Translations under genes and position numbers: made by a program
Shown here: positions 3,527 to 54,507 of the stretch, one piece after another
Layout: each line of letters starts with the position of its first letter
How positions within the stretch are numbered: position 1 is the first letter of the stretch
The notes under the pieces: generated by a model
What the model saw: the letters and a program-made list of their open reading frames with translations, nothing else
What the model was told of the DNA's origin: nothing
Databases searched by the model: none
IMG/VR virus record: IMGVR_UViG_3300020049_016021
DNA: 64,000 bases
Reading direction: 5' to 3' (one strand)
From: a virus

Positions 3527-3985
3527 ATGTATGAGACAAGCCTCATAACAGCTTGGGGAGCTAAGCAACCCCAAAACTTCATTCAAGAACCACTCAGAAA
3601 CATTACGTATCTGCGTAATCGTTTGGTGCTTAACATTCAATATGCCTGCGCAAACAGAACGTGCACAAAAGACGTGTCTAAAGCGATAAATGAGGCAAAA
3701 AAAGAGTTAAACTCGCTCGCAGTACGCGTACCCCGCCAAATGCAAGACCTCATTGACGAGGTTTCTGAGGTAAAAGCCAGGATTTTGGCTGCACCTGCCG
3801 AAGAATTCATCACCGTAGGAAAATACTTTCCTGAGAGTGAACACGCTGATGTCATTGATGCCTGGGTAGCTTTTTACGCTCCCAGCGGTAAATTCGATCT
3901 TTTAACCGGCTTAACCGCCCTCATCGAGGTGACACGGTTCGGTCTAAATTTCAACTATGGAACAGATTCCACAGAAAATAATTGA
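3527..3985 (+). CDS. Hypothetical protein
   Basis: 152-aa ORF. Confidence 0.5.
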   Translation: MYETSLITAWGAKQPQNFIQEPLRNITYLRNRLVLNIQYACANRTCTKDVSKAINEAKKELNSLAVRVPRQMQDLIDEVSEVKARILAAPAEEFITVGKYFPESEHADVIDAWVAFYAPSGKFDLLTGLTALIEVTRFGLNFNYGTDSTENN

Positions 3986-38780: not shown

Positions 38781-41700
38781 TAGCAGTTATTTATTTTTTT
38801 ATAGACTTCAGTAAATTCTTCCATGGTTAGTTTTCCATCCTCTATTGCTGAAAATGTCTTTGAATCAAACATTAAAACAGAAAAGGTTTGAGATGTAACA
38901 TCTGTTATGTAGCCATAAGTGTTCTCCTTTAGATATACCACTTGGCCTACTTCTACGTCCGAAAATTCCCTAAGACTAGGAATGGTATGTTCTTTTGTTT
39001 CCTCGTTGAATGTTACCTCCACACTACCAAGAGCTCTTGGTATATTCAACTCAACTCTTCTTTGAGCTTCACTAAATCTAGTGTCGTGATTCAATGTTGC
39101 TGGTAGGTATCTATCAGAAAAACCTGTCTTTTTGTAAACAAGCCTAGCAAGAGCTCTTCTTGCATTAGGCCAAGTAGTTAGAGGTTCTAGTAATTCTTTT
39201 TCTACGTAAACATTAGCACTAGAAGGAATTTCATTTAATAACGTTATAGACTTATTTACCGCAGCTTGAACTTCTTCAGGAGTTGAATCCTTCGTAATGT
39301 GGGATAGTGGTAGTACTATACCCTCTTCTATTTCTGAAGTTGAGACTATTACATTATTCCGTTTTAGTGCCTTCTCCCTTATTTCCTTTATCTTATCTAC
39401 AACAACGGTTGTTCCAGTTCTACTTGATGTGAAAGATCCAGCCAGACTTCTGATAGCTGGAGCTACCTCGGTTTTTGTTAATGGAACCTTCGATTTAAAT
39501 CGGAGTGTGTACCTGTATTCAGTATCGGTCTGCCTTGCGTGCGTAACTTCATAGATAGTTAATTCTGTGCCGGATGCGTCTTGCCTATTAAAAGCGGCTA
39601 CTGTATCTCCTTTTTCAAGAATGTAACCATCGATAGCTTCGGTCAAAGTGCTACCTTGTATATTAGATCTATTTACTATTCTTCCATTAAACTCTAATTT
39701 ATCCAAACTAAAGGCAGTATCTATATCATTTATAGAAAATCTATAGTGAGGAGAACCCCCTGGCTCTGTTAGTTGCACATAGTATGTGTACTCACTTCCA
39801 GGAGTGTTTTTTAACATGTAGACTTCATTACCATATAAACGGATAAATCTAGGAGAATTATCTGAGAAAGGAACATTAAATTTTAAGTCAAAGTGTATCT
39901 TCTTGTCGGCGTAATTTGCAGTTCCATGGAATATCTTCTTATTTCCCCATGACATCTTTACATTTGCAATAGTCATTGGAGCAGTATCATTGCGCCTAAC
40001 CAAATCGGGTCTAGATCGAAGCATTTGAAATGTAAAGGCATCTTTTAGAAGAGATAGATTAATACCACTTCTAGCATCGTCTTTAGGTATGACTGCTTCT
40101 AGTCTTGCGTCCTGAGCATTTGAATAACCAATAGACCATTCGGCAGGGAATACAAGTGATAATCCAGTGCGTTCAAAATACATCCCGTCGCTTATAAGCG
40201 AATATTTAAATAGATCACGAGCAAAATCAGCCCAAGATGTTTCTGTTCCTGGTATTACCTCTTTATTATGTATAAGCTTTTCAAAGTCTTCCCTTATAAG
40301 TTCTAGCATCTCCTCATCACTTACCTTGTCTGCTACGATTTGAAGTTTTGTAACTTTATCTCTATTTGTTATAATCTCTAGGGCATTTAAGAACTCATTG
40401 CTAGAGTCAATACTCAGGACCTTACCGGCTGAAGAAATAAACTTTTGTCCCCAAGCTTCTTTCCCATAATAAGATTTTTTATCTGTGTGATAAACAGTAT
40501 CAGATGGAACGCTTGTGGAGAATGGGACACCATTTACATCAAAGTCTAAATCAGCACTAAGATATTTGATTAATTCTTTTGAAACCTCATCTGTCTTCTC
40601 TAGTTGATCGAACGGTGTGAATATATTAGTCTCATTTAGAAAACGATTTATAAATCCTTGCACTATCGGATTATAGACAAAGAAACTGTTTTCTAAGATC
40701 TTCTTGTAAAGAAGTAGTGCTCTATAAGCGGCTAACACGTGTGGAAGCCTAAGAGGTGTAGAATTTTCAAAGGCAGAATTATCAGAAGGCTTTATCTTTC
40801 TTGATAAACTTCTCCTAAGAATTTTGTTTACAAAAGTGGCCCTGATCTGAGCAAAATAGAAATCTGATAGATCTGGATTTTCCTTATACTTATCTAGTCT
40901 CTCTTTAAGTAGCTTTTCAGCTGTTTCCTCTGATTCTTCAAGAGCAGCCTTATATTCTGCTGATTCCCTAAAGGTTTCTGCTAGTGTTTCCACAAGTACC
41001 TTTTGTAGTTCAGCACCCCTGTTACTTTCATCTGCGAACTTGGTATATCTTTCAATCTTTCCTATTACAGAATCTACTTTCCAACGTTTGTTTGGTAATC
41101 CTCGCAAAGAACTATACACCTGGCTATGAGTAAACAATTCTTCTCCTACTGGGATAAGTTTCCTTAGGTTTGAAAGTACAACTAGATCTGAAATAAGTCT
41201 ATCGATTCCTCTTGTTTTACCTATGTATATGGAATCAAGTGTTGAGGTTTCAATCGATAATCGACCGAAAGCCATGCTTATGCCCTTCTGTTTCTGAACG
41301 GCTCCTATGAGCTTATCCGCTTGCTCAGGGTATAATTCATAAAGGCGGTTTTGCCAATTATCATCTTTTATAAGCTCATCCGTAAGCTTAACGAGTTCTT
41401 TTCTTAATTTCTCTGAAGTCCAACGCCCACCCTCACTTAGGGCAGTTACTGCTGGAGTTTTAAATATTCTAGAAACAGTATTCAACGGAAAGCCAAATCC
41501 AAGAAATGTTAAGAACAAATTAGCATTATTATTAGTAATACCTAATATGTGCAGTTTTTGCATCTTAACGTTGTCAATAGCCAAGTTGATTATTGTATCT
41601 ATGGTTTCAAATACATTCTTCTGTTTTTCATCAAGTCTGGAAAATCCAGATATAGTTGTTCCATTTACGGTGGTCTTAAAGATATCTTTTAGTCTAACAG

Positions 41701-42226
41701 CTTCTCGTTTTTGAATCCTGAACCCAATATTTTTTTGTATTAGGCCTTCTATAGTAGCTGCTTTATTTGCTACTAAAACCTTATTTAATTCGGTACTGCC
41801 TGCCATATAGACAAAGTTATCAGGACCAATTACAGATTCTATTGGAGTTGTACTTAGAAGATATGAAAACATCTTACCAAAGTTGGCCGCAATACCAGTA
41901 AGAGAGATACCAGAATAGGTATTATATCTTATCTGTTCTTGAGCACTGAAGTCTGTTAATTGTCCTTGTGCTGTTAAAGCGGCATCAACTTCTTCTTGAC
42001 TTTGAAAAGCCCTAACTTCTTTGTTATTTTTTTGGCTTTCAAGAGCAGCCCAAACTTCTGATAAAGAAGGTTCTTGAGCGTATGGATCATACCGTTCTAT
42101 TAGTGTTTCAGCAAGAGGAGAAAGGGGCTCAGTACTTAAGCCCCCTAATCCATTCTCGAAAACAAACGCCCTAAATTCCTCTACAGAGAATTCTTTTTCG
42201 TTTACAATTATTTTACAATCTAGCAT
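38780..42226 (-). CDS. Large virion-associated protein (1148 aa), function unknown
   Basis: Uninterrupted 1148-aa ORF; ATG overlaps the stop of the 4095-aa gene. Confidence 0.65.
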   Translation of the reverse strand: MLDCKIIVNEKEFSVEEFRAFVFENGLGGLSTEPLSPLAETLIERYDPYAQEPSLSEVWAALESQKNNKEVRAFQSQEEVDAALTAQGQLTDFSAQEQIRYNTYSGISLTGIAANFGKMFSYLLSTTPIESVIGPDNFVYMAGSTELNKVLVANKAATIEGLIQKNIGFRIQKREAVRLKDIFKTTVNGTTISGFSRLDEKQKNVFETIDTIINLAIDNVKMQKLHILGITNNNANLFLTFLGFGFPLNTVSRIFKTPAVTALSEGGRWTSEKLRKELVKLTDELIKDDNWQNRLYELYPEQADKLIGAVQKQKGISMAFGRLSIETSTLDSIYIGKTRGIDRLISDLVVLSNLRKLIPVGEELFTHSQVYSSLRGLPNKRWKVDSVIGKIERYTKFADESNRGAELQKVLVETLAETFRESAEYKAALEESEETAEKLLKERLDKYKENPDLSDFYFAQIRATFVNKILRRSLSRKIKPSDNSAFENSTPLRLPHVLAAYRALLLYKKILENSFFVYNPIVQGFINRFLNETNIFTPFDQLEKTDEVSKELIKYLSADLDFDVNGVPFSTSVPSDTVYHTDKKSYYGKEAWGQKFISSAGKVLSIDSSNEFLNALEIITNRDKVTKLQIVADKVSDEEMLELIREDFEKLIHNKEVIPGTETSWADFARDLFKYSLISDGMYFERTGLSLVFPAEWSIGYSNAQDARLEAVIPKDDARSGINLSLLKDAFTFQMLRSRPDLVRRNDTAPMTIANVKMSWGNKKIFHGTANYADKKIHFDLKFNVPFSDNSPRFIRLYGNEVYMLKNTPGSEYTYYVQLTEPGGSPHYRFSINDIDTAFSLDKLEFNGRIVNRSNIQGSTLTEAIDGYILEKGDTVAAFNRQDASGTELTIYEVTHARQTDTEYRYTLRFKSKVPLTKTEVAPAIRSLAGSFTSSRTGTTVVVDKIKEIREKALKRNNVIVSTSEIEEGIVLPLSHITKDSTPEEVQAAVNKSITLLNEIPSSANVYVEKELLEPLTTWPNARRALARLVYKKTGFSDRYLPATLNHDTRFSEAQRRVELNIPRALGSVEVTFNEETKEHTIPSLREFSDVEVGQVVYLKENTYGYITDVTSQTFSVLMFDSKTFSAIEDGKLTMEEFTEVYKKINNC

Positions 42227-45200
42227 TTTATTTTAATTAAACCGGACTCTGCGAGTTTCTTATAGAATGAAGAATTAATATCATCAGTTAATAAGTTGGA
42301 AAGCTCTTTTTGCATTCTATGCCTATTGCGCACAACATCTTCAAATGAGATAGGAGTTAAAAGATCCTTTCTATTTTTCATCTCAAGAAGATTAGTTGCA
42401 AAGTTATGAACAATGTCATTTTTGGCAACTGTTTCAGTTGTTGCATTTAGTTTTGAAAGCTTATCATTTAAATCCTTTAATTTGGCATTCAGCTGGCTTC
42501 GTTCTGCATAGGTAGCCCCCGCCATCTGACTTGTTAACAGATTGATTTGTTGACTGATAGATACTACTTTAGACGTCAAATAGTCACGCAATTTTGCTCC
42601 TTCAATAGTGATAGGTTTTCCATTTAGGTAACCATAGGCTTCCCCTACTGGAGTTACAAGATCAGGATTATAAACATGGGAAGGATCAACGCTACTTAAA
42701 ATAGTATTTAAATCTAGCGCTTCCTTCATATCATTGTAGTCTTTTCTAATAACAAACAAACTGTCTACGTCATAGTCAGAACCATGGTAGTATACTATAA
42801 GAGAAGGGGCGATTATAATGTTTCCTTGAGAAGCCGCAGACTTAGGATAAAAACCAACTACCTTCATTGGTAATAATGAGTGATAGTTAGTAGTAGGAAT
42901 CCTAAAACCAACTAAGCCATTAGAGAGCCCAAGAACATCACCAACAGTCATATAAGCAGCATACTCTTCAGGTAAGATTACTTCGCAGTAACCCTCTGAG
43001 TCGCGCCACTTTAGATTACGCATTTCTTTCGAACCGTCTGGATTAGTAATTTCGACTGGTCCAAGATCCGCTTGTAAAACTAACTTTGAGCCTTTAAATC
43101 TGAATCCTGTTGTTGCGGCTGTTATCATGGAACCTATACTAGAAACTACACGATCAGCTATTAACGGGAGATTGAAAGAAGCTTTTTGTTTTTTGGATTC
43201 TGTTTTTAGAATTTCATAAACATCCTTTGCTCCATCAAGACCGTCTAGGTTTTCAATTAACTTTGCCCTTAATAAGTTTTCAGAAGCAGCTGTTAAAGTG
43301 CCCTTGCTAGTTAGCCTTAAATCTCTTGAGACTTGCCTAACACCATTATCTATGATTGTAGCACTTGCTAAGTGTAGATCATAAATTTCATGTGTATTCT
43401 CTCCGTTTGTGTCCTGCATAGCGGTAGCCTGTGAAGGGGCTGCTACGCTTGTTTCTACACTGTGGGCTGGGTTCAACTGGAAACGTAGATTCTCATTGTT
43501 TAATGTAATGAAAGATCCTTCTGATATACTATTCGTATGTATTCGACCATCCTCTCCAAGTTTGGCTGGACTAGCAGGTCTACCAATCTTTACACCAGAT
43601 TTGAAAACCATCTGATCTGCTTTCGCATTACGCATGGCCTCTCTATAGGTGGCAAGATGAGGAAAGGCAGCAACAAGTTCGTCAGTCAAGACTTTAACAG
43701 AATATTTTACGGCTGTTGGAACACCCTTTTCTATGGAGAAATATACGGGCTTTAATACTGTATCAACAAGAGCATCAGCTCCATAAGCAGAAGCAATCTT
43801 TTCATAGAACTCTGGTAGCATAAATCCTTCAGCATCTGAAGCTTCGTAGTCAGCTCCGTAGGAAGCATTGATAGCAGCTTCTAGGTCTTCTGGAATCTCT
43901 CTTACTAAGTCTTCGACAACCAATACTTTGGATTCTTTAGGGAGCCCGTGTACAGCATCTATTAGCATAGTGTCCCCAGTAGCAGTTACTATCTGAATAC
44001 GTTTTGTTTGTTCTTCCTTGTTAGCGAAGAAAGCCTCGTCACCATAAATAATTTGAGATAAAGAATACTGGTTTATTATGAAATTAAAGTAGAAACTTTC
44101 TATTAGTTTTTCAACTATTTGATTTCTTTTTTCAAAATAATTATTTAATTCTTCATCACTCATGTTACGTTTCCATTCGGGAGCAGTTCCAATATTCAGT
44201 ATGCTAGCCGCAGCTTTTAAATCCTTGTCGGAAATAGGTACCTTAGCATTTTTCTCTGGTAATCTGATGAAAGCAGGCAATAGTTCTGCTACCTTAGTAG
44301 TTACGTGTTTCTTTACTGCCTCAATAGCTTCAGTAGTTGAAAGATCTTTTGTTGAACCAGTCAGTCCCGCAAATCTCCAAGATTGGTAATTCTTAGCATA
44401 TGTTGGATTATTTCCAAGTAACTTTGGATCAGGTCTATTTTTTTGAGCGTTGATAATAGCTAGTAAAGCTTTATCTATCTGTGCTCCTTTTAATACTGAA
44501 ACCTCTACATTAGCAATGGTCGTTCTATTTGATGGAATAGGCAGAGCTTGATAGTATTTTCCTCTTGAAGCCGCTACTCTAGAAATAAAATTACCTACTA
44601 TGTGGCGCTTTCTAAAGTCATTTAAATTTTCTTTGCGAAGGAATTTAGCGAAGCGCTCATTCCCTTTTTGTTTCCATGAATCATGTTCATTATACGAGAA
44701 CAGCGTGTTTAGACCGTTAAAGAAAATATTAGAAGATAGGAATGGATCGGTGCTTTTCACTTTTCCATTTTGTACAGAAAAAGTATCAAAACTCTTGGCT
44801 GGTCGTCCCTGTAAAGCATTTTCGAGACTTGTCAGTAGATCTGTCTGGTAGGAAGAATCAATCCATCCAAAAGCTTTTTTACCGTCGCCTCTTGTATAGG
44901 AGTGAGTTTCACCTAAAGCAAAGTGGGAATTCAACATATCTGTTAATTCATCAATAAAGCTTCCCTCATTTTCTAACAGAGTTTCACCACTTCTAGCTTC
45001 TTGATATTCTTCTTCAGTTTCGTAGTCTGTCTTCTCTGTTGCATAACCAGCCTGCAATTTTGGAGCAACAAGTTTTAAACGTTCAAAAAATAACTCAACA
45101 CTCCTAGCAGAAGCATCTGTTATTCTTTTATGGACATCTATAAGATTAAGAAACTCCTTTATAAGGCTTCTTTTCTCTTCTATTGTTTTTACATTTGTAT

Positions 45201-48200
45201 TATAAAGTTTGTCCATGAATTCCTGAGGAAAGAGTTTCTTTTCCTTGGCCTCAAGACGGGTTTCTACATATTTATTAAAGAAGAAGCGGAGATTAGCTTC
45301 ATGGGCTCTTTTACCTCCACCTGCTTTTATTATGTAGTTTATTACTTTATAAATACCAAAATCCCAACGCTCAATGAAGGCTAATGGCTTACTTTTTCTC
45401 AAGGATGCTACAGCTGCCAGTAAGCTCTTTAAAAAGTCCATATCTTCAAACAAGTAGTATGCTTGTCCTACTGAACTATATGGGACTCGTACCTTATTAG
45501 CTAAGAGCTCAATGAAGCTGTGTGTAGTGCTTTGTTGATGTTCAACACCATACTTTGTAGGAAATTGCTTTGCTGTATGTAAGGTTACTTCTTCAACAGA
45601 CGAACCATCTAAAGAGTAAATCGCATACACCCCCTTAAAGGTTGCGTCTTTTCTAAAAGAAATATTCTTTAGTCTGTTCGGAGCATCTAACTTTGTCTCT
45701 ATGTCGTGAAACAAATTCAACATAGCGTTTCCTGTAGCCCAACGGATATTAGGTTTACTTCTTATTCCTTGGAATTCTTTAAAGTTGTGTTTCAAAGCTT
45801 CCAATGCCCCTCTTATAGAATGCTTAGGAATTGAAGCAATACGTTCTAGCAAAAATGAATAGGCCCTGTTTAAGTCTGCATAATCTTCTTTACCGTTTTT
45901 CCAGTACTTTATTGTGATTAACCTTTGCTTTATTGCGCCCGTTAATTTTACGTGAGGATCAACAAGCATAGAGTCAAATGTCTCGGCTCGTAGGGCATCA
46001 AGTTCAGAAGTTAGCGACTCTGGTGTGTCAACATTTTCTTCGTTACCTTCTTCTACTTCTGCTGGAGCGCCTTCTAAGAGAGCGGCTAGTTTAGCTTCTT
46101 TCTCTTCTATATCCTTTAATTTAATTGCATCCAGTACTTTCAGAACAGCTCCTCTAGTTTGTGTTTGTCCAAAGTAGTGATTTACAAGCTTTCTCCAAAG
46201 ACCTCCATTTTTTAAGATCTTTGCGAGCGTGGCTCTAAGCTGAGCAGCTTCTTCCTGCGTATAAGTAATGCCTGCTGAAAACTTACTAGGACTTTCTACA
46301 AAATCCTTCATTCGTTCTACTACAGACTCAAGAATTTCACTTTGACTCAATACTCGAGTAGTCGGCCGATTCCTTTGAATTTCAGAATAAGCAGCTAAAA
46401 TAAATGTTTTTGCTTGATGATATTCTGTGTAAGAATTAAATTCTGAGCGCAGATTCATCGCAGCTCTTTCAACTAATGGTGTCTCTCGTTGCTTAAAATA
46501 GAAAGCCTTGTTATCTATCAGATTAAAGAAATTCTCTACGCTGCTTAGATTATTATAGGTAAATCCTAAAAGACGTTTCAACTTATTCCAAAGAATCTCA
46601 AAGATATTAGATGTCTTTGTTTTGACAAATGTCTCAAAACTCTCGGCTAATTTCTCTTCTAATTCTACAACCCCTAATTCCCCATAAACCTCACGAGCAA
46701 GATTTAAAGCCTGCACCTGTTCAGCTGGAGTAAGGTATTCCCAAAATACTTTGTGAAATAATTCGTGTCTTACAACTCTAGAAGAGATCTTACCATTTGC
46801 TAATCTAGCAAAGCTAGTTATCCCGTTTTTATAGAGCCCCCAGACAGTTTCCCCTCTAGCATTGACAAGTTGCCCGTATTCCAATATTTGATATAATTCT
46901 CCTTTCTTGTTAGAGAAGAGGCTTTTCAAGAATTGAATAGGTGTTTTTCCTGTGAATCTACCCACGTAATTATCAACATCTACGTCGGAAAACTCTTCAC
47001 CAAGATTTTCACCTAAGAATCTCTTTGAACGTTCAGTATGAATTGCTTCCAATAACTTTGTGACCCCTTCCATGGGATCATCAGGATTTATCGAAAGCAC
47101 CTTATCTCTATATTCGAAATTAGATTGGAATACATCTTCGAACTCTTCAGCTGGTGAATCAGATAATGCCACCAACTTCTCTAAGTAATCCGAGAATCCA
47201 GTAGGAACATCTAAACTTTCAGCATCAAAAGCCTGCACAGTTGGTAAGGCAGAACCTTCTCTTGCTTTTTTTCTAAGAGCAGAGCTAATAGGTATTAACT
47301 GGTCAAAGATGTCGTAGAGATCTTCTAGCTCTGTATAGGTTATACGCTCGGTTAATCCAGCCTGCTGTGCAAGTGTGTTGTAGTGATTTATAACTTCTTG
47401 TAATTTTTGTCTTACAATAGCTTCGTCAGCTTCAAACTCATAAATCAAGCTTTCTAAGTCATTATCAAATCTAGCTCTATCAAACTTCTTACCTGAATAA
47501 TAGTCCGTCCGTGCAAAGTCTGCAATCGTAAATACCTCTTGTTCATTAATAGCATTCAAAATTCTCGTAAGAACAGAAGCTCTAATGAAGTCTCTAGAAG
47601 CAACGTCGCCTTGGTTTCGTCCTGTATCTTTGACATCTAAGGATGTTTCAAGATCTGCTTTAATATTATCGAGAGCAGTGCTTTCTTGTTTTGCGACGTC
47701 CTTTAGGGCAGTGATTATAGCAACATTTTGTGTTACATATAATTGGCTTTGAGCGTGAGCCTCTCTATATTTTTCGACAGCTTCAATTAGCGAAATAGCT
47801 CCCAAACCGCTAACAAATTCCCCAGTAGCCTTCTGGCTAAATTCTTTTGTTATGGCTTGTTCAATAGTTTTAGTGCTTGTTTCCTTAGAAAACTCCTCAA
47901 TCCTTCTTTTCAATCGAATTAGTTCAGAGCGCTCTACTCTTTGTTGTTCTTGCTCAAGTGGACTTGTTACTCCAGCTTCTAAGGCAACATCTATGACGGT
48001 GTGGCGTACTCCTGTAAAATGTGTAGTCACCAACTCTAAGGGTAGATTCTCTAAGGCTGTCTCAGCGCTCACATCAAAACTCTTTGGTAGAGGAGTTCTC
48101 AATCCAAATCCTTCTGAAATATTACTAAAGGTGCCTGTTTTATCCTGTCCTTCTAAGAACACATCCTTTAAGTCCTCTAAGCTTATTGGAGAAAGGTGTT

Positions 48201-51200
48201 TATTTCCTGGAGTCTCTAAGAGCTCATTTATGAAATGAAATCTTGGTGTGCCGGCTTTTCCCCTTCTTACTAAAGAACCCCTATAAGCTTCTAATCGGTT
48301 TAGTAGCGCAGAGTTTATTTTTGGATTATAGGCTAATCCTTTCTTCCTAGTAAATTTAATAGGACCAAGCAAACTGATACCCTTGGTATCTTTTACGTCC
48401 TTCTCTTCATCTAATACTTTGTAGTCTCTTAGAATTATATTCTTACCATTATGTGTTGTAATTACTAAATTCTGACTACCAATGGAGTCCATTATTAGTT
48501 GAGCTTCTCCTTTATAGGATCTTCTCTTACCAGCTTCAATATTACCATGCACCAAGAAATCTAACTCGGATGCAAGCTCTAGTAGTTTCTTAGGAATCTT
48601 CTTCCCATCAACATCGGGAAACAACTTATTTAGAGCCGGCGCAGGAGATAATTTCAATGTAGCCTCCTTACCTTCAACAAGAGCCGTGTGTGTATTAGAA
48701 AGGTGTGTGATAAGCTCGTGAAAAGGAAAATACTTCTCCCCAGCAATATCCACCATGCCCCCTAGTTTTAATGTAGAGTAAGCTCCTGGTAATTTACTAC
48801 TTGCCAACGCTTTCTCAAATTGTTCTAGTGTCTTTATGAATTTTACAAGGGGCTCTATATTTGTGGTCTTTGTATTTAAGACTGTTGGAGCGAGACGAAT
48901 GAACTGTGTCTTTACAACCTTACCAGTTGTAGTTCGTAGTCCGTGTATCATCATATAAGGAGGACCTATTTGAGGTCTATCCTCTATTGAGGTAGCATCC
49001 GGAAACCATCTATCAAGATCCTTTGCAGACTTAAACACGCCTATAGTGACATGCTTTGCAGGATTGGCTAGTATTTCTGAATAGTTCTCTAATTGCTCAT
49101 CACCACTAGGACCCCACATCTCATTCAAATACTTTCTCAGAAGAGGGATATCTGTTATCTTTCCACTATTAGCATCTCTTGCAAGAGAGGAAAAATCTTC
49201 CGTTGGCTCTTCACCGTACAGGTATTGGAGAGGTGCACTGCTGGCTTGGTTTATGATCTCTATACTATCAAGACCAGGAGACCTAAATACACCTGGAGTA
49301 GCTGTAGAAGAAAGTGTTGAGGGTTGGAGTGTTTGTAGGGAAATCCCTAAATTTTCCTCTAACCTCCTATTTTCAGATTCTCCTAATACTGCTATTCTTT
49401 CAAAAAGATCACCTCCAAGTTTTCGTAGAATAACGTATCTACTTGCTGGTGTACCATCCTTTTTTGGAGTACGGTCTAAGGCGATTTGAAGCACTTCTCC
49501 AGGAACTAGTGGGTTAATGCCGTCTCTACCTTGGTCATGCTTAAATGTTGCATTAGTTGGATGAAGAAGTCTATGGGCTCCTTGCACAACGGGCTGCTGT
49601 GGTGGAGTATCTATAGGAATATCTTCTTCCCAAGTTATATCTTCTTCCTCTTCTTCTTTCTCCTTTTTAGGCTTACTTTCTGGTACTGGAGCTTCTTCAG
49701 AAGGAACAGCAACATCAGTTAATGCTTCTAAAATCTTTATGCGTTCATCTAAAAGCTTTAAGACTTCTTCAGCTGTTCTTGTAGTTTTTGGTTGTGCTGC
49801 TATAGTTGGGTCAACTATGTGGGAAGCCTTTGGGACATTAGACAGATGTGCATATTTTCTTGCTCTTGATAAAGCTGTATATACCCACTGATTATATACT
49901 TCTACGTTCTCAAAATTTACCTGATCCCCTTTAGTAATGTCCACATAAACCTCGTCTCTAACAATACCTGCTGCTTCCGGTACCATCAGAACAGTAGCAT
50001 CCGGAAGAGAAGCTTGATATTGAGCTTGCTTTGCTTTACTTCCAACCAGTATAATCCTTGTCCTAGCCGGATTGCTTCTTACAGAACGTTTGTAACTATC
50101 TACAATAGAGTTGCCTGTTTCTGCAAATGAGCCCTCTATCTCTTCAGCTGATAAGGAGATATCCTTTGAAGAAGATGAATTATGTTCAACTACTTCTTCC
50201 TTACTTTTGTATTGATTCTGAAGATCTATTAACTCATCTAAGTCTGCTCTGTAAGTAGCCGATAAGGGTGATATTTGTAGCAAGTTCTCTACTAAAGGTA
50301 ATCCCGTAACAGCTGTTATTGGCCTTCTTCCTGTCTCAAATGCCTCTTTTACCGCTTTATCCCCATTATGATACTCAGTTTCAGTAGCTGAAAAGTTATC
50401 ATAAAATTCAAGATCTAGTGCTGGTCTACCGACGTTTCCTGGTGTTACTTGGTTTGGGTCATATAGAAACAAATACTTAACCTGTGCCTCTTCGTTTAGA
50501 GTATTGTACTTAGCAACAGCAGAAGCAAACTTGTTTATGGTTTCAATAGTAAGACCCCCAGCTTCGTCTATGATGATGGTTCTCACCTTACCTAGAGTAT
50601 CGGACTCTAGTTTAGCTATTATTTGTTCAATAGTGTTGGTGTTGTCAGGATTACCAAGACTTTCTGCAATGTTCTCGGCAGCTAGTTGATATGGAGCCGC
50701 TGAAATAATTTCCTCATCCTTTAGGCCTAGCACGTGCTTCAACAACTTAGATACTACTAAGGATTTTCCTGCTCCCGCTGGAGCTCTTAAAGCTGCGCCA
50801 GCAGAATATAATTTTCCTGAATTTTTTGGGGTAGAGAAGAAAGTAGCCAATTCCCTAGCAACCCTGATTTGTGCTGAAGAAGGTAGTGGAAGTAGCGGAT
50901 TGTTCTTTATGAACTTCCTGATCTTTGAAAGAAATTCAACATGGTTAAATCCACCTTCAGCGGCCAATTGAATATGTTGCAGAGCTGTTAACTGCGCCTG
51001 TAGTTTTACAAGAGCAGCTAGTTCTTCCTTCGTTGCGTTACCAACATAGTTACCAAGAGCAGTATTAAAATCAACAATATCATAGTTTTTATTAAAATTG
51101 ACTAAGGGATCTATATTCTGCTTTGGTAGAGGATTTAATTTCTCCTTAGCCTCTAATATACGTAGTACTTCTAAAAATCCGCGACTAGGATTGTCTAATA

Positions 51201-54200
51201 TTCTAACAAGAGATTCATCAGTTAATCTTGGCCCAAGTCCTGTTGTCCAAAGCAACTTCATAGAACGTAAGAATTCTTCAGCCTTTTTCCTATAAGCCTC
51301 TTGAATTTCAATAGCTTTCTTAGGTTCTTGAGCTAGTGTATCTAATACCGCCATTGAAGTTAATTCTGGATCTAGAACATCTTCAGTAAGGATTGGCGTT
51401 AGTTCATTGGTTGCCTCAGCGTAGAATAAGTTCTCCTTTGTATTTTTTAAGTCCTTGTTCTTAAGATTCTCCTCAACCAAAGTTTTTATAAGTCTTAGTT
51501 TTGGAAGTAGGATAGCAGCATTGCTTTTTATAAGTTTACCATTGTTACCAAGGGAATCAAGATTTATTTTCTCTAGTGCTTCAAGATGAGCTATTTGTTT
51601 CTTTACTGCCTCTAGTGCTGTGTAGTCTTCTGATATCTTTTCACCATCAAATTCACTTACCTCAACAATCCGTTCAGCCGCTTGAGTTATTTCTTTTGCA
51701 GCGAGCTCCTTAGCTTCAATATTGTCTACGAAATCAGGACTTGTTTTTCTAGCGTCAAGAGTATCGAAAGTTTTCTGTTGGTCCTTTATCAAAGGTGCCG
51801 CAGAACTCTGTAACGCTTTTATATTATCATATTCATCAAGCAAAGCTAAAATGCTATCAGGTAGTTCATCTGCTTCCATTTCTAGAAGCTCTTCAACAGA
51901 GATACCATTTGGTAGTTTCGCTAAAATAGCTTCTTCTTCCTTTTGCAGAGTTTCAGCCACTTCTGCTATCTCATTCTTCAATAAGTCTATCTCATCTCCG
52001 TACATAGAAAGATCTTCTTCCTGAAGGGTTTGAGTTATTTTATTTAAAGATTCGATTTTATCAGCTAGATCCTTTCCTGTATTTGACAGCCTTACTGTTG
52101 CCGCTAATACGTCTGATTGAAAGTAAGTCTTTGCAACCTTTAACTTCTTTTCAGTTTCAATAGCTGTGGCCCTTTTCTCTAGGAAACTATTAACAGTTTT
52201 GTCAGTAGCTCCTTCCCCCAAAGATAAAGTCTTTAGCCCTTCTCGTACTGTTCGAAGTCCACTAAAATCTTTATTAGATACAGCGTCTTTATAGGCTTTA
52301 AAACCTGTGCTAGGTTTTATTAGCTTCGTATAAACTTGTCCCAGTTCTTCCAAAGCTGTTTCAGCTTCTTTTTGCTGGGTTAGAAGATTAGCAAGCTGTT
52401 GCTCATTGAGGGCATCCTTTGTTTTAAACTTACCAAGAGCATCTATATCACCAGCGTTGAAAGCAGTGGCTATTTCTGAAGCCCTAATTGGGTCCTGTTG
52501 CCACACTGCATTTATTTCTTTACCAATTTCCTCGGATAAAGCTTTTAGATTTACAATCCTACCACCAACATTAGCTGTGTAAGCTTTTAAACCTCTTAAT
52601 GTAGTCTCGTCTGTAGGCGATAGAAGTGAATTATTTACTTGTAAAAAGTTTTGCTCTAATCTTTCAATATGTGCTTTCCAACCATCTACCTGTTCTTGTA
52701 GTTCCTTCGCTGTTGAAAATCCCATTGCCTGGGCCTGTTCTTCTGTGGCTTGCTGTAAAGTTTCTAACTTCTGTATAAGCTGTTCTGTAGTGCCAGAGTT
52801 GAAGGCAGTTTGGGCCAGATTGTTTAACTTTTCTAGCTGGAAATATTTTAGTTTTAATGGATTAGGATTTGGTCTGCCAGCTTCTAAATCAAATAAATTA
52901 TCTAATTCTCCTTGATAGGTGATGTCAGCGGCCAGTGCGGAAGCTTTTGCCATATCCTTTTTAGGTAGGCCATCATCTCCCAATACTATAGAAGAAGCTA
53001 TTTCATAGTTACCATCCTGATCTGCTCCATACTGAGCAGCCAATCCTTGGTACTGTGTTTCATCAATCTTCTGCACCTGTCCATCTATCTCATTAAAATA
53101 CTCTTGTGTTCCGTCTTCTTTTGGCTTGGCTACCAGCTTTCCTTTTTTTGCAGGCGTACGCTCTATAACATCAGTTGAGAAGAAATCAGTATAAGCCGAA
53201 TTCAACCTTGTCTCGGCGTCTTTTTGACGTTGACGGTAATTTCTAGATTGAGAGACCGATCCTACACCAATTAGATCCGCAACAATAGATTGGCCACCAC
53301 CTATAATAGCTCCAAGACCAGCGGCCTTTACTCTGTCTGGATCAGCGAAATCCATTTCTAAAACATCTTTAATATAAGCTTTAGAAGCGTCTAGAAAAGA
53401 ACTATGGTTATGGGTAGCATCATTTGCTTTTTGAATTGAGTACTGAAGATTTTCTTCTAAGCCCTCTCCAAAAGTTTGAGTGATAATTGACTTTGCAAAA
53501 TTAGCATAGGAGTTGCCTTGGTCATAAAGTAACTTTTCAACAGCAGTCAAAGGAGCCTTGGCCTGAACAACCTTACTCGAAGATTTTGCAAGTCCTAGTC
53601 CTAAGTCATTCATCCTAGTAGAAGTAACACCAGGTTTGAATATAGGTTTCACAAGTTTTGTGAAGAAGTTGTTTGTAACTCCAGCCGTAGCCATGTTCAA
53701 CCAAAAAACATTGGTTAAAGACTGATTAGCTTTATCAGCTATTTGTTCGTCAGTTAATTCATTTTCTCCACGCTGTCTTGCGACCTCCAGTTGCCTCTTT
53801 ACTTGATCCCTAGAATCAATTCCCTCAAGAGCAGATTCATTTACAGTTAAAAATGTGTTTAATGTTAGCTCGTCTATATTACTAGCTATCTTGGCCAGCT
53901 TCTGACTACCCGAATTAAATAGGACATCTCTAAATGACTTTCCTTTTGCTAAAGCATTGATAACCCTTGAGCCTGTAGCTGCTTTTGCCAACAAGCCTGT
54001 TAATCCAAAGCTCTGAGTTAAAAAAGAAACTGTTTCAACATTAGCCGTAGCTAGTTGCCCAGGAGAAGATAGTTGATCCCAAAAGCTTTTATCATGGAAG
54101 TTTGCCTCTTGAAAGTGCGGAAAATGCTCAGTACCCCAGGTACTGATTGCCTTCCCCATATCCAAGAATGGGTTATGTTCAAATCCAGAAGCAAACTCTC

Positions 54201-54507
54201 CACCAGAAAGAGCTTTAGCACTTCCTTCTACAAGCCCTGTAAAAGCGCCTACTATTGTTGGTGCACCAGACAATGTTTTTACTCCTAAGTCCCCTAAGAA
54301 GTTTGCAATTGCTGTTGGATAGCCTTGATTATTATATCGGACATTGGCTTGATTCTCATAATCCAAGAGGCCCTTATCGTAGTAATTCCCCAGCAAGCTA
54401 CCAAGATAGGTGTCAGCGCTACCTATTGGTTGTCCGCCAAACTCATTACGAGGTCTGGCATAGGCTTTGTGTTTGACCGGTGAAATTAATTGACTTATAT
54501 CTGGCAT
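42220..54507 (-). CDS. Giant virion RNA polymerase-like protein (4095 aa) with an internal SF1 helicase domain and a C-terminal beta-prime-like DPBB catalytic motif
   Basis: Helicase: Walker A RAPAGAGKS (about 50765-50790), Walker B TIIIDEAGG (about 50560), motif VI VYTALSRARKYAHL (about 49850). RNAP: FRIPTTNYHSL (about 42885-42910; compare beta-prime NRAPTLHRL) followed by YYHGSDYDVDSLF (DxDxD at about 42765-42780; compare NADFDGD). Zero in-frame TGA; TAG stop. Confidence 0.8.
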   Translation of the reverse strand: MPDISQLISPVKHKAYARPRNEFGGQPIGSADTYLGSLLGNYYDKGLLDYENQANVRYNNQGYPTAIANFLGDLGVKTLSGAPTIVGAFTGLVEGSAKALSGGEFASGFEHNPFLDMGKAISTWGTEHFPHFQEANFHDKSFWDQLSSPGQLATANVETVSFLTQSFGLTGLLAKAATGSRVINALAKGKSFRDVLFNSGSQKLAKIASNIDELTLNTFLTVNESALEGIDSRDQVKRQLEVARQRGENELTDEQIADKANQSLTNVFWLNMATAGVTNNFFTKLVKPIFKPGVTSTRMNDLGLGLAKSSSKVVQAKAPLTAVEKLLYDQGNSYANFAKSIITQTFGEGLEENLQYSIQKANDATHNHSSFLDASKAYIKDVLEMDFADPDRVKAAGLGAIIGGGQSIVADLIGVGSVSQSRNYRQRQKDAETRLNSAYTDFFSTDVIERTPAKKGKLVAKPKEDGTQEYFNEIDGQVQKIDETQYQGLAAQYGADQDGNYEIASSIVLGDDGLPKKDMAKASALAADITYQGELDNLFDLEAGRPNPNPLKLKYFQLEKLNNLAQTAFNSGTTEQLIQKLETLQQATEEQAQAMGFSTAKELQEQVDGWKAHIERLEQNFLQVNNSLLSPTDETTLRGLKAYTANVGGRIVNLKALSEEIGKEINAVWQQDPIRASEIATAFNAGDIDALGKFKTKDALNEQQLANLLTQQKEAETALEELGQVYTKLIKPSTGFKAYKDAVSNKDFSGLRTVREGLKTLSLGEGATDKTVNSFLEKRATAIETEKKLKVAKTYFQSDVLAATVRLSNTGKDLADKIESLNKITQTLQEEDLSMYGDEIDLLKNEIAEVAETLQKEEEAILAKLPNGISVEELLEMEADELPDSILALLDEYDNIKALQSSAAPLIKDQQKTFDTLDARKTSPDFVDNIEAKELAAKEITQAAERIVEVSEFDGEKISEDYTALEAVKKQIAHLEALEKINLDSLGNNGKLIKSNAAILLPKLRLIKTLVEENLKNKDLKNTKENLFYAEATNELTPILTEDVLDPELTSMAVLDTLAQEPKKAIEIQEAYRKKAEEFLRSMKLLWTTGLGPRLTDESLVRILDNPSRGFLEVLRILEAKEKLNPLPKQNIDPLVNFNKNYDIVDFNTALGNYVGNATKEELAALVKLQAQLTALQHIQLAAEGGFNHVEFLSKIRKFIKNNPLLPLPSSAQIRVARELATFFSTPKNSGKLYSAGAALRAPAGAGKSLVVSKLLKHVLGLKDEEIISAAPYQLAAENIAESLGNPDNTNTIEQIIAKLESDTLGKVRTIIIDEAGGLTIETINKFASAVAKYNTLNEEAQVKYLFLYDPNQVTPGNVGRPALDLEFYDNFSATETEYHNGDKAVKEAFETGRRPITAVTGLPLVENLLQISPLSATYRADLDELIDLQNQYKSKEEVVEHNSSSSKDISLSAEEIEGSFAETGNSIVDSYKRSVRSNPARTRIILVGSKAKQAQYQASLPDATVLMVPEAAGIVRDEVYVDITKGDQVNFENVEVYNQWVYTALSRARKYAHLSNVPKASHIVDPTIAAQPKTTRTAEEVLKLLDERIKILEALTDVAVPSEEAPVPESKPKKEKEEEEEDITWEEDIPIDTPPQQPVVQGAHRLLHPTNATFKHDQGRDGINPLVPGEVLQIALDRTPKKDGTPASRYVILRKLGGDLFERIAVLGESENRRLEENLGISLQTLQPSTLSSTATPGVFRSPGLDSIEIINQASSAPLQYLYGEEPTEDFSSLARDANSGKITDIPLLRKYLNEMWGPSGDEQLENYSEILANPAKHVTIGVFKSAKDLDRWFPDATSIEDRPQIGPPYMMIHGLRTTTGKVVKTQFIRLAPTVLNTKTTNIEPLVKFIKTLEQFEKALASSKLPGAYSTLKLGGMVDIAGEKYFPFHELITHLSNTHTALVEGKEATLKLSPAPALNKLFPDVDGKKIPKKLLELASELDFLVHGNIEAGKRRSYKGEAQLIMDSIGSQNLVITTHNGKNIILRDYKVLDEEKDVKDTKGISLLGPIKFTRKKGLAYNPKINSALLNRLEAYRGSLVRRGKAGTPRFHFINELLETPGNKHLSPISLEDLKDVFLEGQDKTGTFSNISEGFGLRTPLPKSFDVSAETALENLPLELVTTHFTGVRHTVIDVALEAGVTSPLEQEQQRVERSELIRLKRRIEEFSKETSTKTIEQAITKEFSQKATGEFVSGLGAISLIEAVEKYREAHAQSQLYVTQNVAIITALKDVAKQESTALDNIKADLETSLDVKDTGRNQGDVASRDFIRASVLTRILNAINEQEVFTIADFARTDYYSGKKFDRARFDNDLESLIYEFEADEAIVRQKLQEVINHYNTLAQQAGLTERITYTELEDLYDIFDQLIPISSALRKKAREGSALPTVQAFDAESLDVPTGFSDYLEKLVALSDSPAEEFEDVFQSNFEYRDKVLSINPDDPMEGVTKLLEAIHTERSKRFLGENLGEEFSDVDVDNYVGRFTGKTPIQFLKSLFSNKKGELYQILEYGQLVNARGETVWGLYKNGITSFARLANGKISSRVVRHELFHKVFWEYLTPAEQVQALNLAREVYGELGVVELEEKLAESFETFVKTKTSNIFEILWNKLKRLLGFTYNNLSSVENFFNLIDNKAFYFKQRETPLVERAAMNLRSEFNSYTEYHQAKTFILAAYSEIQRNRPTTRVLSQSEILESVVERMKDFVESPSKFSAGITYTQEEAAQLRATLAKILKNGGLWRKLVNHYFGQTQTRGAVLKVLDAIKLKDIEEKEAKLAALLEGAPAEVEEGNEENVDTPESLTSELDALRAETFDSMLVDPHVKLTGAIKQRLITIKYWKNGKEDYADLNRAYSFLLERIASIPKHSIRGALEALKHNFKEFQGIRSKPNIRWATGNAMLNLFHDIETKLDAPNRLKNISFRKDATFKGVYAIYSLDGSSVEEVTLHTAKQFPTKYGVEHQQSTTHSFIELLANKVRVPYSSVGQAYYLFEDMDFLKSLLAAVASLRKSKPLAFIERWDFGIYKVINYIIKAGGGKRAHEANLRFFFNKYVETRLEAKEKKLFPQEFMDKLYNTNVKTIEEKRSLIKEFLNLIDVHKRITDASARSVELFFERLKLVAPKLQAGYATEKTDYETEEEYQEARSGETLLENEGSFIDELTDMLNSHFALGETHSYTRGDGKKAFGWIDSSYQTDLLTSLENALQGRPAKSFDTFSVQNGKVKSTDPFLSSNIFFNGLNTLFSYNEHDSWKQKGNERFAKFLRKENLNDFRKRHIVGNFISRVAASRGKYYQALPIPSNRTTIANVEVSVLKGAQIDKALLAIINAQKNRPDPKLLGNNPTYAKNYQSWRFAGLTGSTKDLSTTEAIEAVKKHVTTKVAELLPAFIRLPEKNAKVPISDKDLKAAASILNIGTAPEWKRNMSDEELNNYFEKRNQIVEKLIESFYFNFIINQYSLSQIIYGDEAFFANKEEQTKRIQIVTATGDTMLIDAVHGLPKESKVLVVEDLVREIPEDLEAAINASYGADYEASDAEGFMLPEFYEKIASAYGADALVDTVLKPVYFSIEKGVPTAVKYSVKVLTDELVAAFPHLATYREAMRNAKADQMVFKSGVKIGRPASPAKLGEDGRIHTNSISEGSFITLNNENLRFQLNPAHSVETSVAAPSQATAMQDTNGENTHEIYDLHLASATIIDNGVRQVSRDLRLTSKGTLTAASENLLRAKLIENLDGLDGAKDVYEILKTESKKQKASFNLPLIADRVVSSIGSMITAATTGFRFKGSKLVLQADLGPVEITNPDGSKEMRNLKWRDSEGYCEVILPEEYAAYMTVGDVLGLSNGLVGFRIPTTNYHSLLPMKVVGFYPKSAASQGNIIIAPSLIVYYHGSDYDVDSLFVIRKDYNDMKEALDLNTILSSVDPSHVYNPDLVTPVGEAYGYLNGKPITIEGAKLRDYLTSKVVSISQQINLLTSQMAGATYAERSQLNAKLKDLNDKLSKLNATTETVAKNDIVHNFATNLLEMKNRKDLLTPISFEDVVRNRHRMQKELSNLLTDDINSSFYKKLAESGLIKIKC

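Follow-up and report, generated by a model that had tools for sequence, protein, structure and literature searches.

The window, a 64,000-nucleotide stretch of viral DNA (IMG/VR record IMGVR_UViG_3300020049_016021), contains a reading frame that combines a helicase with the catalytic barrels of an RNA polymerase (RNAP). This raises the questions of whether the frame encodes one genuine chain, whether both of the enzymes assigned to it are real, and what a helicase joined to an RNAP would do.

Extent of the reading frame and the domains preceding the polymerase

The giant open reading frame (ORF) encodes 4,095 amino acids and occupies positions 42220–54507 of the minus strand. It runs as one unbroken frame from an ATG at 54507, two bases past the TAA that ends the preceding gene, to a TAG stop at 42220–42222. 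The same extent had been given in a preliminary description, without the strand. At a G+C content of ~38%, stops make up roughly 6–7% of random codons, and the calculated chance of a 4,095-codon open frame is ~1e-120. Two independent metagenomic relatives, L002 and L003, are collinear with the ORF over its full length at ~38% identity, and P0054 is 57% identical to it, also over the full length. The probability that the frame is an artefact of assembly or annotation fusing separate genes is negligible. Public gene calls do break the relatives up, L003 into proteins of 2602 and 1531 aa and L002 into at least four pieces; however, the breaks consist only of in-frame TGA codons. Three of these align with tryptophans of the window protein, which indicates a pattern of recoding and not separate genes. 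In addition, dozens of independent metagenomes encode uninterrupted proteins of 4,000–7,277 aa whose domains follow in the same order.

The N-terminal region of the protein (aa ~27–554; 52846–54429, minus strand) resembles gp67 of Cellulophaga phage phi14:2. An HMM of 69 family members matches residues 52–436 of gp67 with an E of 4e-68 and cr111_1 gp32, annotated as a ‘putative RNA-polymerase subunit’, with an E of 6e-21. Between the gp67-like domain and the helicase lies a stretch of ~600 residues with a high content of charged amino acids (E/K).

The helicase core (aa ~1195–1575; 49783–50925, minus strand) belongs to the RecD/Dda/Pif1-like SF1 helicases, as proposed earlier from its motifs; it is located in the N-terminal third of the protein and not in the middle, where it had been placed. 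Motifs I (APAGAGKS, 1242–1249), Ia (1269–1280), II (DEAG, 1314–1317), III (LYDPNQ, 1348–1353), IV (LSATYR, 1415–1420), V (1509–1523), and VI (YTALSRAR, 1543–1550) can be traced. The five strings quoted in the preliminary description, GAGKS (1245–1249), DEAG, and VYTALSRAR (1542–1550) of the helicase and RIPTTNYHSL (3869–3878) and SDYDVDS (3910–3916) of the polymerase, each occur once in the ORF. Pfam AAA_30 matches the window protein with 41.0 bits (cut-off 27, E 2e-10) and AAA_19 with 30 bits (cut-off 25.1, E 7e-7), and the family consensus reaches 67.9 bits with AAA_30 (E 1e-18). The PHROG match of the region is a Dda-like helicase, and the best matches in a search of PDB sequences are Pif1, Upf1, and RecD. 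The best-matching families are SF1B, and from this weak, family-level similarity the helicase is most likely an SF1B enzyme with 5′→3′ polarity.

The domain is highly divergent, and it might be regarded as a degenerate, non-catalytic relic that serves a packaged cargo protein as nothing more than a spacer, structural or DNA-binding. A tblastn search, even with the family consensus, matches none of the 50,697 GenBank phage records. With UvrD_C_2, the window protein reaches 15.2 bits and the family consensus 26.1 bits, both below the cut-off of 27.4, and motif V of the window protein is atypical, with PEAAG in place of the usual xxAQG, although its glycine and the following DEV are retained. Nevertheless, a relic is very improbable. 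In an alignment of 67 relatives, all seven motifs are kept with their catalytic residues, and the GK[ST] of Walker A, the DE of Walker B, the glutamine of motif III, and the arginines of motifs IV and VI are present in 62–67 of the 67 sequences. Their retention despite wide divergence at non-motif positions argues for purifying selection on ATPase activity. Judged by its motifs, the domain is a catalytically intact SF1 helicase.

The helicase is followed, after ~950 residues, by a zincin-like HExxH...E module (HELFH, 2581–2585, and EEKLAESF, 2617–2624; 46513–46890, minus strand), which precedes the RNAP. The module has no Pfam or PHROG match. Of 108 family members in the alignment, 101–102 retain its H, E, and H and 98 the downstream glutamate, and the same pair of motifs is found upstream of the RNAP in cr50_1 gp059 and cr52_1 gp34. 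The conserved motif suggests a putative metallopeptidase-like function.

An RNA polymerase divided between two chains

The C-terminal part of the giant ORF (aa 3180–4095; 42223–44970, minus strand) corresponds to the N-terminal two-thirds of a gp66-type two-barrel RNAP. Residues 3465–3924 align in BLASTP with residues 856–1374 of phi14:2 gp66 (E 8e-15), a segment that spans the connector of gp66 (1095–1238; domain limits from bioRxiv 10.1101/2020.03.07.982082). An AF2 model of the RNAP part has a moderate pLDDT of 69.7, which is low around the catalytic loop. The top Foldseek match of the model is 6VR4_A (E 7e-18, 988 columns), followed by QDE-1 and RDR2.

The beta-prime-like catalytic domain recognized earlier is present as the double-psi barrel DPBB2 (aa ~3807–3925; 42733–43089, minus strand), with the motifs GFRIPTTNYHS (3867–3877) and catalytic DYDVD (3911–3915; nucleotides 42763–42777). 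However, it is not alone. The second barrel, the search for which had been suggested, is the beta-like DPBB1 (aa ~3555–3673; 43489–43845, minus strand), with the motif FKSGVKIG and K3640, equivalent to K1065 of gp66. In an alignment of seven sequences, among them the window protein, gp66, cr50_1, cr111_1, and Bcn18, the lysine and glycine of DPBB1 are invariant (7/7), as are the R, P, S, G, S, D, D, and D of DPBB2. The DPBB1 region precedes the gp66 connector in the alignment and is beta-rich in the AF2 model, and the connector of the window protein (aa ~3674–3806; 43090–43488, minus strand) aligns to gp66 1096–1240 and is helical in the model. According to alignment and predicted structure, the two barrels are joined by the connector within one chain in the manner of gp66. 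The rule for crAss-like RNAPs is DxDxD with isoleucine or valine, not glycine, at position 4 (bioRxiv 10.1101/2020.03.07.982082). The DYDVD of the window protein, which has valine at the fourth position and is preceded by the RxP...S barrel motif, fits this rule.

The giant ORF stops 180 aa past the catalytic motif, and the bridge helix and trigger loop are not part of the same polypeptide. They are encoded by the downstream ORF (1,148 aa; 38780–42226, minus strand), the ATG of which overlaps the TAG of the giant ORF (AAATGCTAG) and which contributes the C-terminal third of the RNAP. The bridge helix is formed by aa ~90–123 (nucleotides 41858–41959) and the trigger loop, containing LAIDNVK, by aa ~200–236 (nucleotides 41519–41629). 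The AF2 model of the 1,148-aa protein has a pLDDT of 85.3 and a sole significant PDB match, 6VR4_A (E 3e-8), and hhalign places its residues 90–399 on gp66 1527–1769 (probability 90.6%, E 1.3e-6). The RNAP is a two-chain enzyme, with both barrels in the giant ORF and the active center completed by the next one. The view of an RNAP contained in a single polypeptide is correct for the barrels but not for the bridge helix and trigger loop. The assignment as an RNAP is upheld by homology to gp66, the activity of which is experimentally established, the fold match to 6VR4 and then QDE-1, and the presence of the family-invariant residues. The searches on which both enzyme assignments had been made to depend provided profile support for the helicase (AAA_30) and fold support for the polymerase (6VR4).

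Genomic setting and distribution of the fusion

The third ORF of the block (34257–38780, minus strand) encodes a gp65-like protein of 1,507 aa with HEYYH at residues 174–178, provided that a TGA at codon 11 (nucleotides 38748–38750) is read through; under translation table 11 it is listed as 34257–38591. Alignments of this ORF by tblastn to three relatives pass through the TGA, where the aligned residues are Trp, TGA, and Tyr, and hhalign matches aa 1181–1479 to gp65 1079–1401 (probability 95.9%, E 5e-9). Upstream of the giant ORF, genes encoding proteins of 632, 917, and 1,406 aa belong to the same operon-like block (54510–63371, minus strand). PHROG 15100 (E 4e-92) identifies the 1,406-aa product as a virion structural protein. 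In tblastn, it matches gp30 of Flavobacterium phage Fpv1 and Cellulophaga phages; its nearest named relative, Fpv1, is classified outside Crassvirales. The gene order is that of Fpv1 gp30–gp34 and phi14:2 g071–g065. The window comprises the transcription block with its synteny and its convergent layout with the replication module, whereas the structural module lies outside. A separate replicative-type helicase is encoded within the replication module. The giant ORF heads what is probably the known ‘transcription block’ polyprotein of a crAss-like phage, of which it is the largest member and to which a helicase has been added. The host of the phage is probably a member of the Bacteroidota.

The preliminary description had pointed to phi14:2 gp66 and crAss001 gp47/49/50 for comparison, and the RNAP core is homologous to those of both types. 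The gp67, gp66, and gp65 of phi14:2 (gp66, PDB 6VR4) contain homologous parts in the same order as the window, from the gp67-type N-terminus through the two-barrel RNAP with DxD[IV]D, bridge helix, and trigger loop to the gp65-type protein at the end. The phi14:2 block likewise sits after structural genes and converges on replication genes. However, its three ORFs are cut elsewhere: a single 2,180-aa chain contains the entire RNAP, whereas the RNAP of the window is split about 180 aa past the catalytic motif. The RNAP cores share only ~23% identity. No P-loop or helicase was found anywhere in the phi14:2 block. The crAss001-type (Kehishuvirus) gp47/gp49/gp50, compared by way of PhiCrAssBcn18 proteins 19 and 20, have a homologous RNAP core (tblastn E 1e-9, HMM E 3e-14), but differ from the window in lacking a helicase and in the partitioning of the subunits.

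Two other giant proteins resemble that of the window. The 4,774-aa gp059 of crAssphage cr50_1 (Suoliviridae, Cohcovirus), annotated as ‘DNA helicase’, is also a single chain with an HExxH...EExxAExF module, an RNAP core (GSDFDID), and an SF1 AAA_30 helicase. Unlike that of the window, the cr50_1 helicase is positioned at the extreme C-terminus (aa 4249–4448 and beyond) and is of the ordinary Dda type, matched by 1,583 phage records, without detectable relation to the window helicase. It looks like an independent helicase–RNAP fusion, and within the phage collection this type was found only in cr50_1. The 4,401-aa gp33 of Fpv1, annotated as ‘virion structural protein’, is the positional counterpart of the giant ORF with corresponding flanking genes (gp30 corresponds to the 1,406-aa protein) and has the RxP...DYDID barrel motif. 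By contrast, its weak SprT-like HExxH follows the RNAP instead of preceding it, and Pfam detects no helicase in it.

The vRNAP of phage N4 is T7-like and lacks double-psi barrels. N4-like vRNAP (~3,500 aa) and the RNAP of Thermus phage P23-45 (5,002 aa) are likewise very large, virion-delivered, and fused to other functions, in P23-45 to the tape-measure protein; neither is known to carry a helicase.

The distribution of the fusion was assessed among the best 150 matches to the RNAP core in a library of 1.8 billion proteins, 89 of which are at least 3,000 aa long. A homologous helicase is carried by 78 of these 89. Its median envelope start is at residue ~1,100, and DxDxD follows ~2,250 residues past its end. 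The boundaries of the ORFs vary by lineage, and the block is divided into one, two, or three of them; some relatives have the three parts merged into a chain of 6,000–7,277 aa. For crAss-like phages, giant RNAP proteins reaching about 6,000 aa have been named as a hallmark. The fusion had been called unusual for its size, which does not hold for the uncultured relatives, in which it is common, but does hold relative to deposited or described phages. No published description of the helicase–RNAP combination was found. The frequency of the fusion among the long relatives, the retained catalytic residues, and the apparently independent fusion in cr50_1 suggest that the linkage of helicase to RNAP is under selection.

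Proposed coupling of unwinding and transcription

The best explanation of the whole, favored with moderate confidence, is that the giant protein is a member of a virion-cargo block, ejected into the host to transcribe early genes, and that its helicase is coupled to the RNAP. Mass spectrometry has detected the phi14:2 proteins gp65, gp66, and gp67 in virions, and models treat them as ejected cargo; gp47, gp49, and gp50 of crAss001 have been identified as virion cargo by the same method, with a model in which they are partially unfolded and ejected through the tail. By orthology, the window protein would be packaged and ejected in the same way. Coupled unwinding by an ejected enzyme, as proposed in the preliminary description, is plausible because gp66 needs a single-stranded template: it is efficient on single-stranded or denatured DNA and barely transcribes double-stranded DNA. 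Neurospora QDE-1, the next structural match after 6VR4, also prefers single-stranded DNA and requires the helicase QDE-3 together with RPA; however, QDE-3 is a separate RecQ (SF2) protein of a eukaryotic RNAi pathway, with neither fusion nor virion context. After ejection, the chain would refold, and the ATP-driven helicase would open the entering double-stranded genome or keep it open. By moving along the non-template strand in the direction of the polymerase, it would supply the gp66-type RNAP with a single-stranded template. The addition of a helicase may explain how such injected polymerases gain access to double-stranded DNA. Against coupling, more than 2,000 residues of sequence lie between helicase and polymerase, and the conserved HExxH module in this interval means that cleavage could separate the two. 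Nor is a helicase in cis generally required, as the block contains none in many crAss-like phages, among them phi14:2, crAss001-like phages, cr52_1, and Fpv1.

It is also possible, if rather unlikely, that the giant chain is a precursor cut by its own HExxH module or by a gp65-like protease, with a helicase that acts independently of transcription as a genome-entry motor, in early replication, in recombination, or, like Dda, in stripping host proteins off DNA. Drobysheva et al. considered fused forms ‘likely cleaved into individual components’. The placement of the essentially invariant HExxH...E module between helicase and RNAP is consistent with cleavage, and the lineage-dependent division of the block into one, two, or three ORFs indicates that its parts can function as separate chains. 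However, no cleavage sites or processed forms are known, and in the sampled relatives the helicase is never a separate gene beside the RNAP. The replicative-type helicase of the window is provided by another gene. Furthermore, the breaks in split chains coincide exactly with conserved terminal cysteines, which suggests that the pieces are kept joined.

Giant ORF, in-frame TGA codons and helicase domain

The ORF at 42220..54507 on the minus strand (hereafter the giant) consists of 4,095 codons without interruption. Its ATG lies two bases past the TAA of the upstream gene, and its TAG stop codon is overlapped by the ATG of the next gene (AAATGCTAG). The chance that a random frame of 4,095 codons stays open, calculated at about 38% G+C, is about 1e-120. 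Homologous giants from two metagenomic relatives, L002 (2-12361) and L003 (2171-14593), can be aligned with it over its full extent in a single frame, with an identity of about 38%, and P0054, a JGI protein, is 57% identical over the whole length. Judged by these end-to-end alignments, the gene is real and under selection along its full length; the uninterrupted 4,095-aa ORF of the preliminary description is borne out by the open frame and the full-length collinear relatives. The motifs quoted in that description each occur exactly once, at residues 1245-1249, 1314-1317, 1542-1550, 3869-3878 and 3910-3916. Searches of 50,697 phage records returned no match to the giant ORF by megablast or to its first 2,999 residues by tblastn, and phmmer found no match to the whole protein among PDB sequences. 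Word-indexed homologue searches with the RNA polymerase (RNAP) part or with a mixed crAss alignment recovered close relatives only.

The giant has no in-frame TGA. In the homologous frames the sole interruptions are TGA codons in frame, of which L002 has eight and L003 one, as a result of which public gene calls cut these giants into pieces of 700-2,600 aa. Three of the TGA codons align with Trp residues of the giant, and L002 and L003 share a TGA at one position. It is very unlikely that the ORF is an artefact, since the breaks in L002 and L003 are TGA codons and full-length collinear relatives exist. In the window, the true start of the gp65-like gene (34257..38780) is 38780 and not 38591, reached by read-through of an in-frame TGA at codon 11 (38748-38750), which is aligned with Trp, TGA and Tyr in relatives. 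The DNA polymerase gene is split by a TGA at 16254-16256 into ORFs 15663..16256 and 16284..17357, which share a frame and match consecutive positions of PHROG 17 (730-885 and 929-1194). At least some TGA codons are probably read as sense (Trp) in this phage, in which case table-11 ORF lists fragment its genes.

Pfam domains AAA_30 (41 bits against a cut-off of 27, E 2e-10) and AAA_19 were found at residues 1238-1334 of the minus-strand giant, together with a weak UvrD_C_2 match at 1524-1555, and PHROGs labels the region a Dda-like helicase. The consensus of the helicase family reaches E 1e-18 with AAA_30 and 26.1 bits with UvrD_C_2, slightly below the cut-off of the latter. All SF1 motifs are kept in a three-way alignment: I (APAGAGKS), Ia, II (DEAG), III (LYDPNQxTPG), IV (LSxxYR), V (AxGIxRDEV) and VI (YTAxSR). 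GK[ST] in Walker A, DE in Walker B, Gln in motif III, and Arg in both motif IV and motif VI are each retained by 62-67 of the 67 family members. As read from these motifs, the giant carries a catalytically intact SF1 helicase, and its description as RecD/Dda-like agrees with AAA_30, PHROGs and the conservation across the 67 sequences. That the domain is an inactive relic is very unlikely given the retention of its catalytic residues. The matches to sequences of solved structures are weak (Pif1, Upf1 and RecD), but all are SF1B enzymes; the helicase is probably of the SF1B type, and its polarity is deduced from that likeness. Neither the helicase segment nor the family consensus matched any of the 50,697 GenBank phage records by tblastn.

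Polymerase divided over two ORFs

The last 1,099 residues of the giant match, by tblastn, gp66 of phage phi14:2 and genes annotated as putative RNA polymerases in many Crassvirales. The gp66 protein has been proven by experiment to be a virion RNAP, and pairwise BLASTP aligns its residues 856-1374 with residues 3465-3924 of the giant (E 8e-15). It contains two double-psi barrels separated by a connector (1095-1238), the catalytic motif DFDID (1361-1365), a bridge helix (1529-1559) and a trigger loop (1598-1636); the fourth position of the motif is Ile or Val in all crAss-like enzymes (Drobysheva et al., bioRxiv 10.1101/2020.03.07.982082). In a seven-sequence alignment, VK.G is invariant in barrel 1, with K3640 of the giant corresponding to K1065 of gp66, and R-x-P...S and GSDxDxD are invariant in barrel 2. 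The motif of the giant, DYDVD (3911-3915), has Val as its fourth residue. For residues 3180-4095, the AlphaFold2 model (pLDDT 69.7) has the gp66 structure 6VR4 as its best PDB match (E 7e-18), followed by QDE-1 and RDR2. According to the invariant residues and the model, both double-psi barrels are present in the giant. The second barrel, for which a search had been proposed, was thus located by the alignment with gp66 and the comparison of the model with 6VR4.

The giant stops 180 residues past the catalytic motif, too early to include a bridge helix. The preliminary description was correct in assigning helicase and RNAP domains to the giant, but the polymerase is incomplete in this ORF. The next ORF, 38780..42226 on the minus strand, encodes a 1,148-aa protein with 30 homologues; tblastn against the 50,697 phage records returned no match to it. 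The only significant PDB match of its model (pLDDT 85.3) is 6VR4 (E 3e-8). Profile-profile alignment places its residues 90-399 on gp66 1527-1769 (probability 90.6%, E 1.3e-6), which puts the bridge helix at approximately residues 90-123 and the trigger loop at approximately residues 200-236, and the motif LAxDN(A/V)K is common to the two proteins. Because these elements map to the 1,148-aa protein, the active centre needs both polypeptides and, on the basis of the alignments and models, is shared between them. In relatives, the junction is either split at the same site or continuous.

Transcription block and junction cysteines

With an HMM that covers residues 1-560 and derives from 69 relatives, phi14:2 gp67 (E 4e-68) and cr111_1 gp32 (E 6e-21) are detected. 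HMMs of residues 561-1190, 1580-2540 and 2700-3460 have no counterpart in phi14:2, cr111_1, PhiCrAssBcn18, cr50_1 or cr52_1. At about 2540-2665, the minus-strand giant contains an HExxH module, HELFH with a Glu 36 residues downstream, which is near-invariant in 108 sequences and is recognised by no family model. Two Suoliviridae giants, cr50_1 gp059 and cr52_1 gp34, likewise carry this HExxH...Glu pair upstream of their RNAP. The third ORF of the block is the counterpart of gp65 (hhalign E 5e-9). As compared by profiles, the giant is the fused "gp67 plus two-thirds of gp66" from the transcription block of crAss-like phages, to which a helicase has been added. It has already been noted in the literature that the three block proteins are fused as "a single huge polyprotein" in some phages, and RNAP genes encoding up to about 6,000 aa have been called a hallmark of the group.

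The block gene order mirrors those of Flavobacterium phage Fpv1 (gp30-gp34) and phi14:2 (g071-g065). Fpv1 and Cellulophaga phages have virion structural proteins that match the upstream 1,406-aa protein; Pfam and PHROG searches with the four neighbouring giant proteins gave no match except PHROG 15100. Genes for an endolysin, a replicative helicase and a family A DNA polymerase lie on the opposite strand and run towards the block, a convergent layout shared with crAss-like genomes. Hydropathy analysis of the giant identifies one weak hydrophobic stretch, residues 397-418 (window 53254-53319; GLGAIIGGGQSIVADLIGVGSV), which resembles a glycine zipper. It lies within the gp67-like region and might contact a membrane during ejection; a role as a membrane channel was set aside because the stretch is single and weak.

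The block proteins are nearly free of Cys except where the chain breaks into ORFs. Of the two Cys in the giant, one is the C-terminal residue; the only two in the 1,148-aa protein are residue 4 and the final residue; and the gp65-like protein has one, residue 3. In the window, the pattern concerns positions 42220-42225/42215-42226 and 38780-38785 and the termini of ORFs 38780..42226 and 34257..38780. At each junction one protein ends in Cys and the next starts M-x(1-3)-C, while the first block protein has no N-terminal Cys and the last no C-terminal Cys. The termini of phi14:2 g067, g066 and g065 are ...NTIC, MAC......QECK and MSC..., and the pattern is also found in cr111_1, PhiCrAssBcn18, cr50_1 and L003 (loci, with that of phi14:2, L004, L006, L007, L001 and L003). 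Among 30 members of the 1,148-aa family, 27 end in Cys and 23 carry one among their first seven residues; in the interior, Cys occurs at a frequency of 0.00015. The junction Cys are missing from fused relatives, and several chains of 6,000-7,277 aa have no Cys at all. The C-terminal Cys was considered as a by-product of the ATG/TGC overlap, a reading rejected since Cys is also present, with no such overlap, at the next junction (TGC TAA TG) and in other phages. The pattern suggests that, at the splits in the chain, Cys-Cys links formed head to tail by disulfide or metal stand in for the peptide bond, and argues that in packaging and ejection, at least, the whole chain acts as the functional unit. 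Disulfides have been documented elsewhere in the crAss001 virion; the full-text literature search and the crAss papers examined yielded no mention of terminal cysteines in block proteins.

Distribution and possible function of the helicase fusion

Phages of the crAss-like group are dominant in the virome of the human gut and common in aquatic Bacteroidota. A profile of the RNAP core was searched against 1.84 billion representative proteins and yielded 539 relatives at E <= 1e-3. Among the best 150 of these, 89 are at least 3,000 aa long, and 78 of the 89 contain a homologous helicase, with DxDxD about 2,250 residues past the helicase end. Helicase-bearing relatives reach 7,277 aa, and the longest also contain the gp65-like part. 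Ten that were looked up come from metagenome collections only, are unnamed or "hypothetical", and lie on contigs of about 25-103 kb, most of about 90-103 kb. Flavobacteriia or other Bacteroidota are the likely hosts of phages with this architecture. No account of a helicase-virion RNAP fusion came up in a full-text literature search whose scope does not extend to Yutin et al. 2018 (PMC5736458). The architecture is thus common in nature but, as far as could be checked, unreported; the fusion is unusual, as first described, relative to described phages only, and not among metagenomic proteins.

Among sampled block proteins of the deposited phages phi14:2, cr111_1, PhiCrAssBcn18, cr52_1 and cr50_1, a P-loop is present in cr50_1 gp059 alone, and Pfam detects no helicase in Fpv1 gp33. 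The gp059 protein (L001:7264-21588, NC_055868), a 4,774-aa RefSeq entry annotated solely as "DNA helicase", has a crAss RNAP core (GSDFDID at about 3152), HExxH at 1665 and, over residues 4249-4448 and further on, a Dda-like helicase. This helicase is of the ordinary Dda-like kind at the far C-terminus and escapes the HMM of the window's helicase, for which reason a shared origin of the two fusions was rejected. The cr50_1 protein, unique within the phage collection in this respect, appears to be a second, independent helicase-RNAP fusion.

The order in which the intact helicase, the putative metallopeptidase module and the two-chain gp66-type polymerase are encoded is fixed and is kept over widely diverged lineages. 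In orthologous systems, the block proteins are virion cargo that is ejected, and gp66 transcribes early genes. It is efficient on single-stranded or denatured DNA and scarcely transcribes native duplex; QDE-1 requires a helicase and RPA, and a helicase and RNAP in one chain parallel the QDE-1/QDE-3 partnership. The crAss-like injected polymerase is, to our knowledge, the only relative of eukaryotic RNAi polymerases in bacterial viruses. The helicase of the giant could open the incoming genome for the polymerase; if of the SF1B type, it would translocate 5'->3' on the non-template strand, co-directionally with a polymerase reading the template 3'->5'. The chances that it is coupled to transcription in this way are about even. 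The main rival, less than probable but a serious possibility, holds that the chain undergoes processing and that the helicase has another role, in DNA entry, in replication or in displacing proteins.

That purified gp66 works only on a single-stranded template raises the question of how the polymerase recognises and opens double-stranded DNA. Coupling by the conserved, intact in-chain helicase, present in dozens of lineages, would be a concrete and testable answer for at least one clade, strengthened by the apparently independent cr50_1 fusion. Tentatively, in a large uncultured crAss-like clade, a dedicated in-chain SF1B helicase may take over promoter or template opening for the ejected machine, making it a self-contained, helicase-primed RNAP without sigma-like melting. 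Under this doubtful scheme, gp67, helicase, protease, RNAP and gp65 would behave as one thread, and where it is cut into ORFs, head-to-tail bonds between conserved terminal Cys, through disulfide or metal, would rejoin the segments so that they pass through the tail in order.

There are practical consequences for annotation: such giants now go under "hypothetical", "structural protein" or "DNA helicase", the RNAP may be distributed over more than one ORF, and standard gene calling breaks the proteins up at in-frame TGA codons. Fpv1 gp33 (L009:29470-42675, NC_031914; 4,401 aa) is annotated as a "virion structural protein", not a polymerase; at 3182-3226 it contains FRTPTSSHKS...DYDID, the barrel motif of the RNAP, and at 4179 a weak SprT-like HExxH. 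The Suoliviridae RNAP giant cr52_1 gp34 (L005:2866-16260), annotated as a "nuclear pore complex protein-like protein", contains 37 in-frame TAG codons, indicative of TAG recoding.
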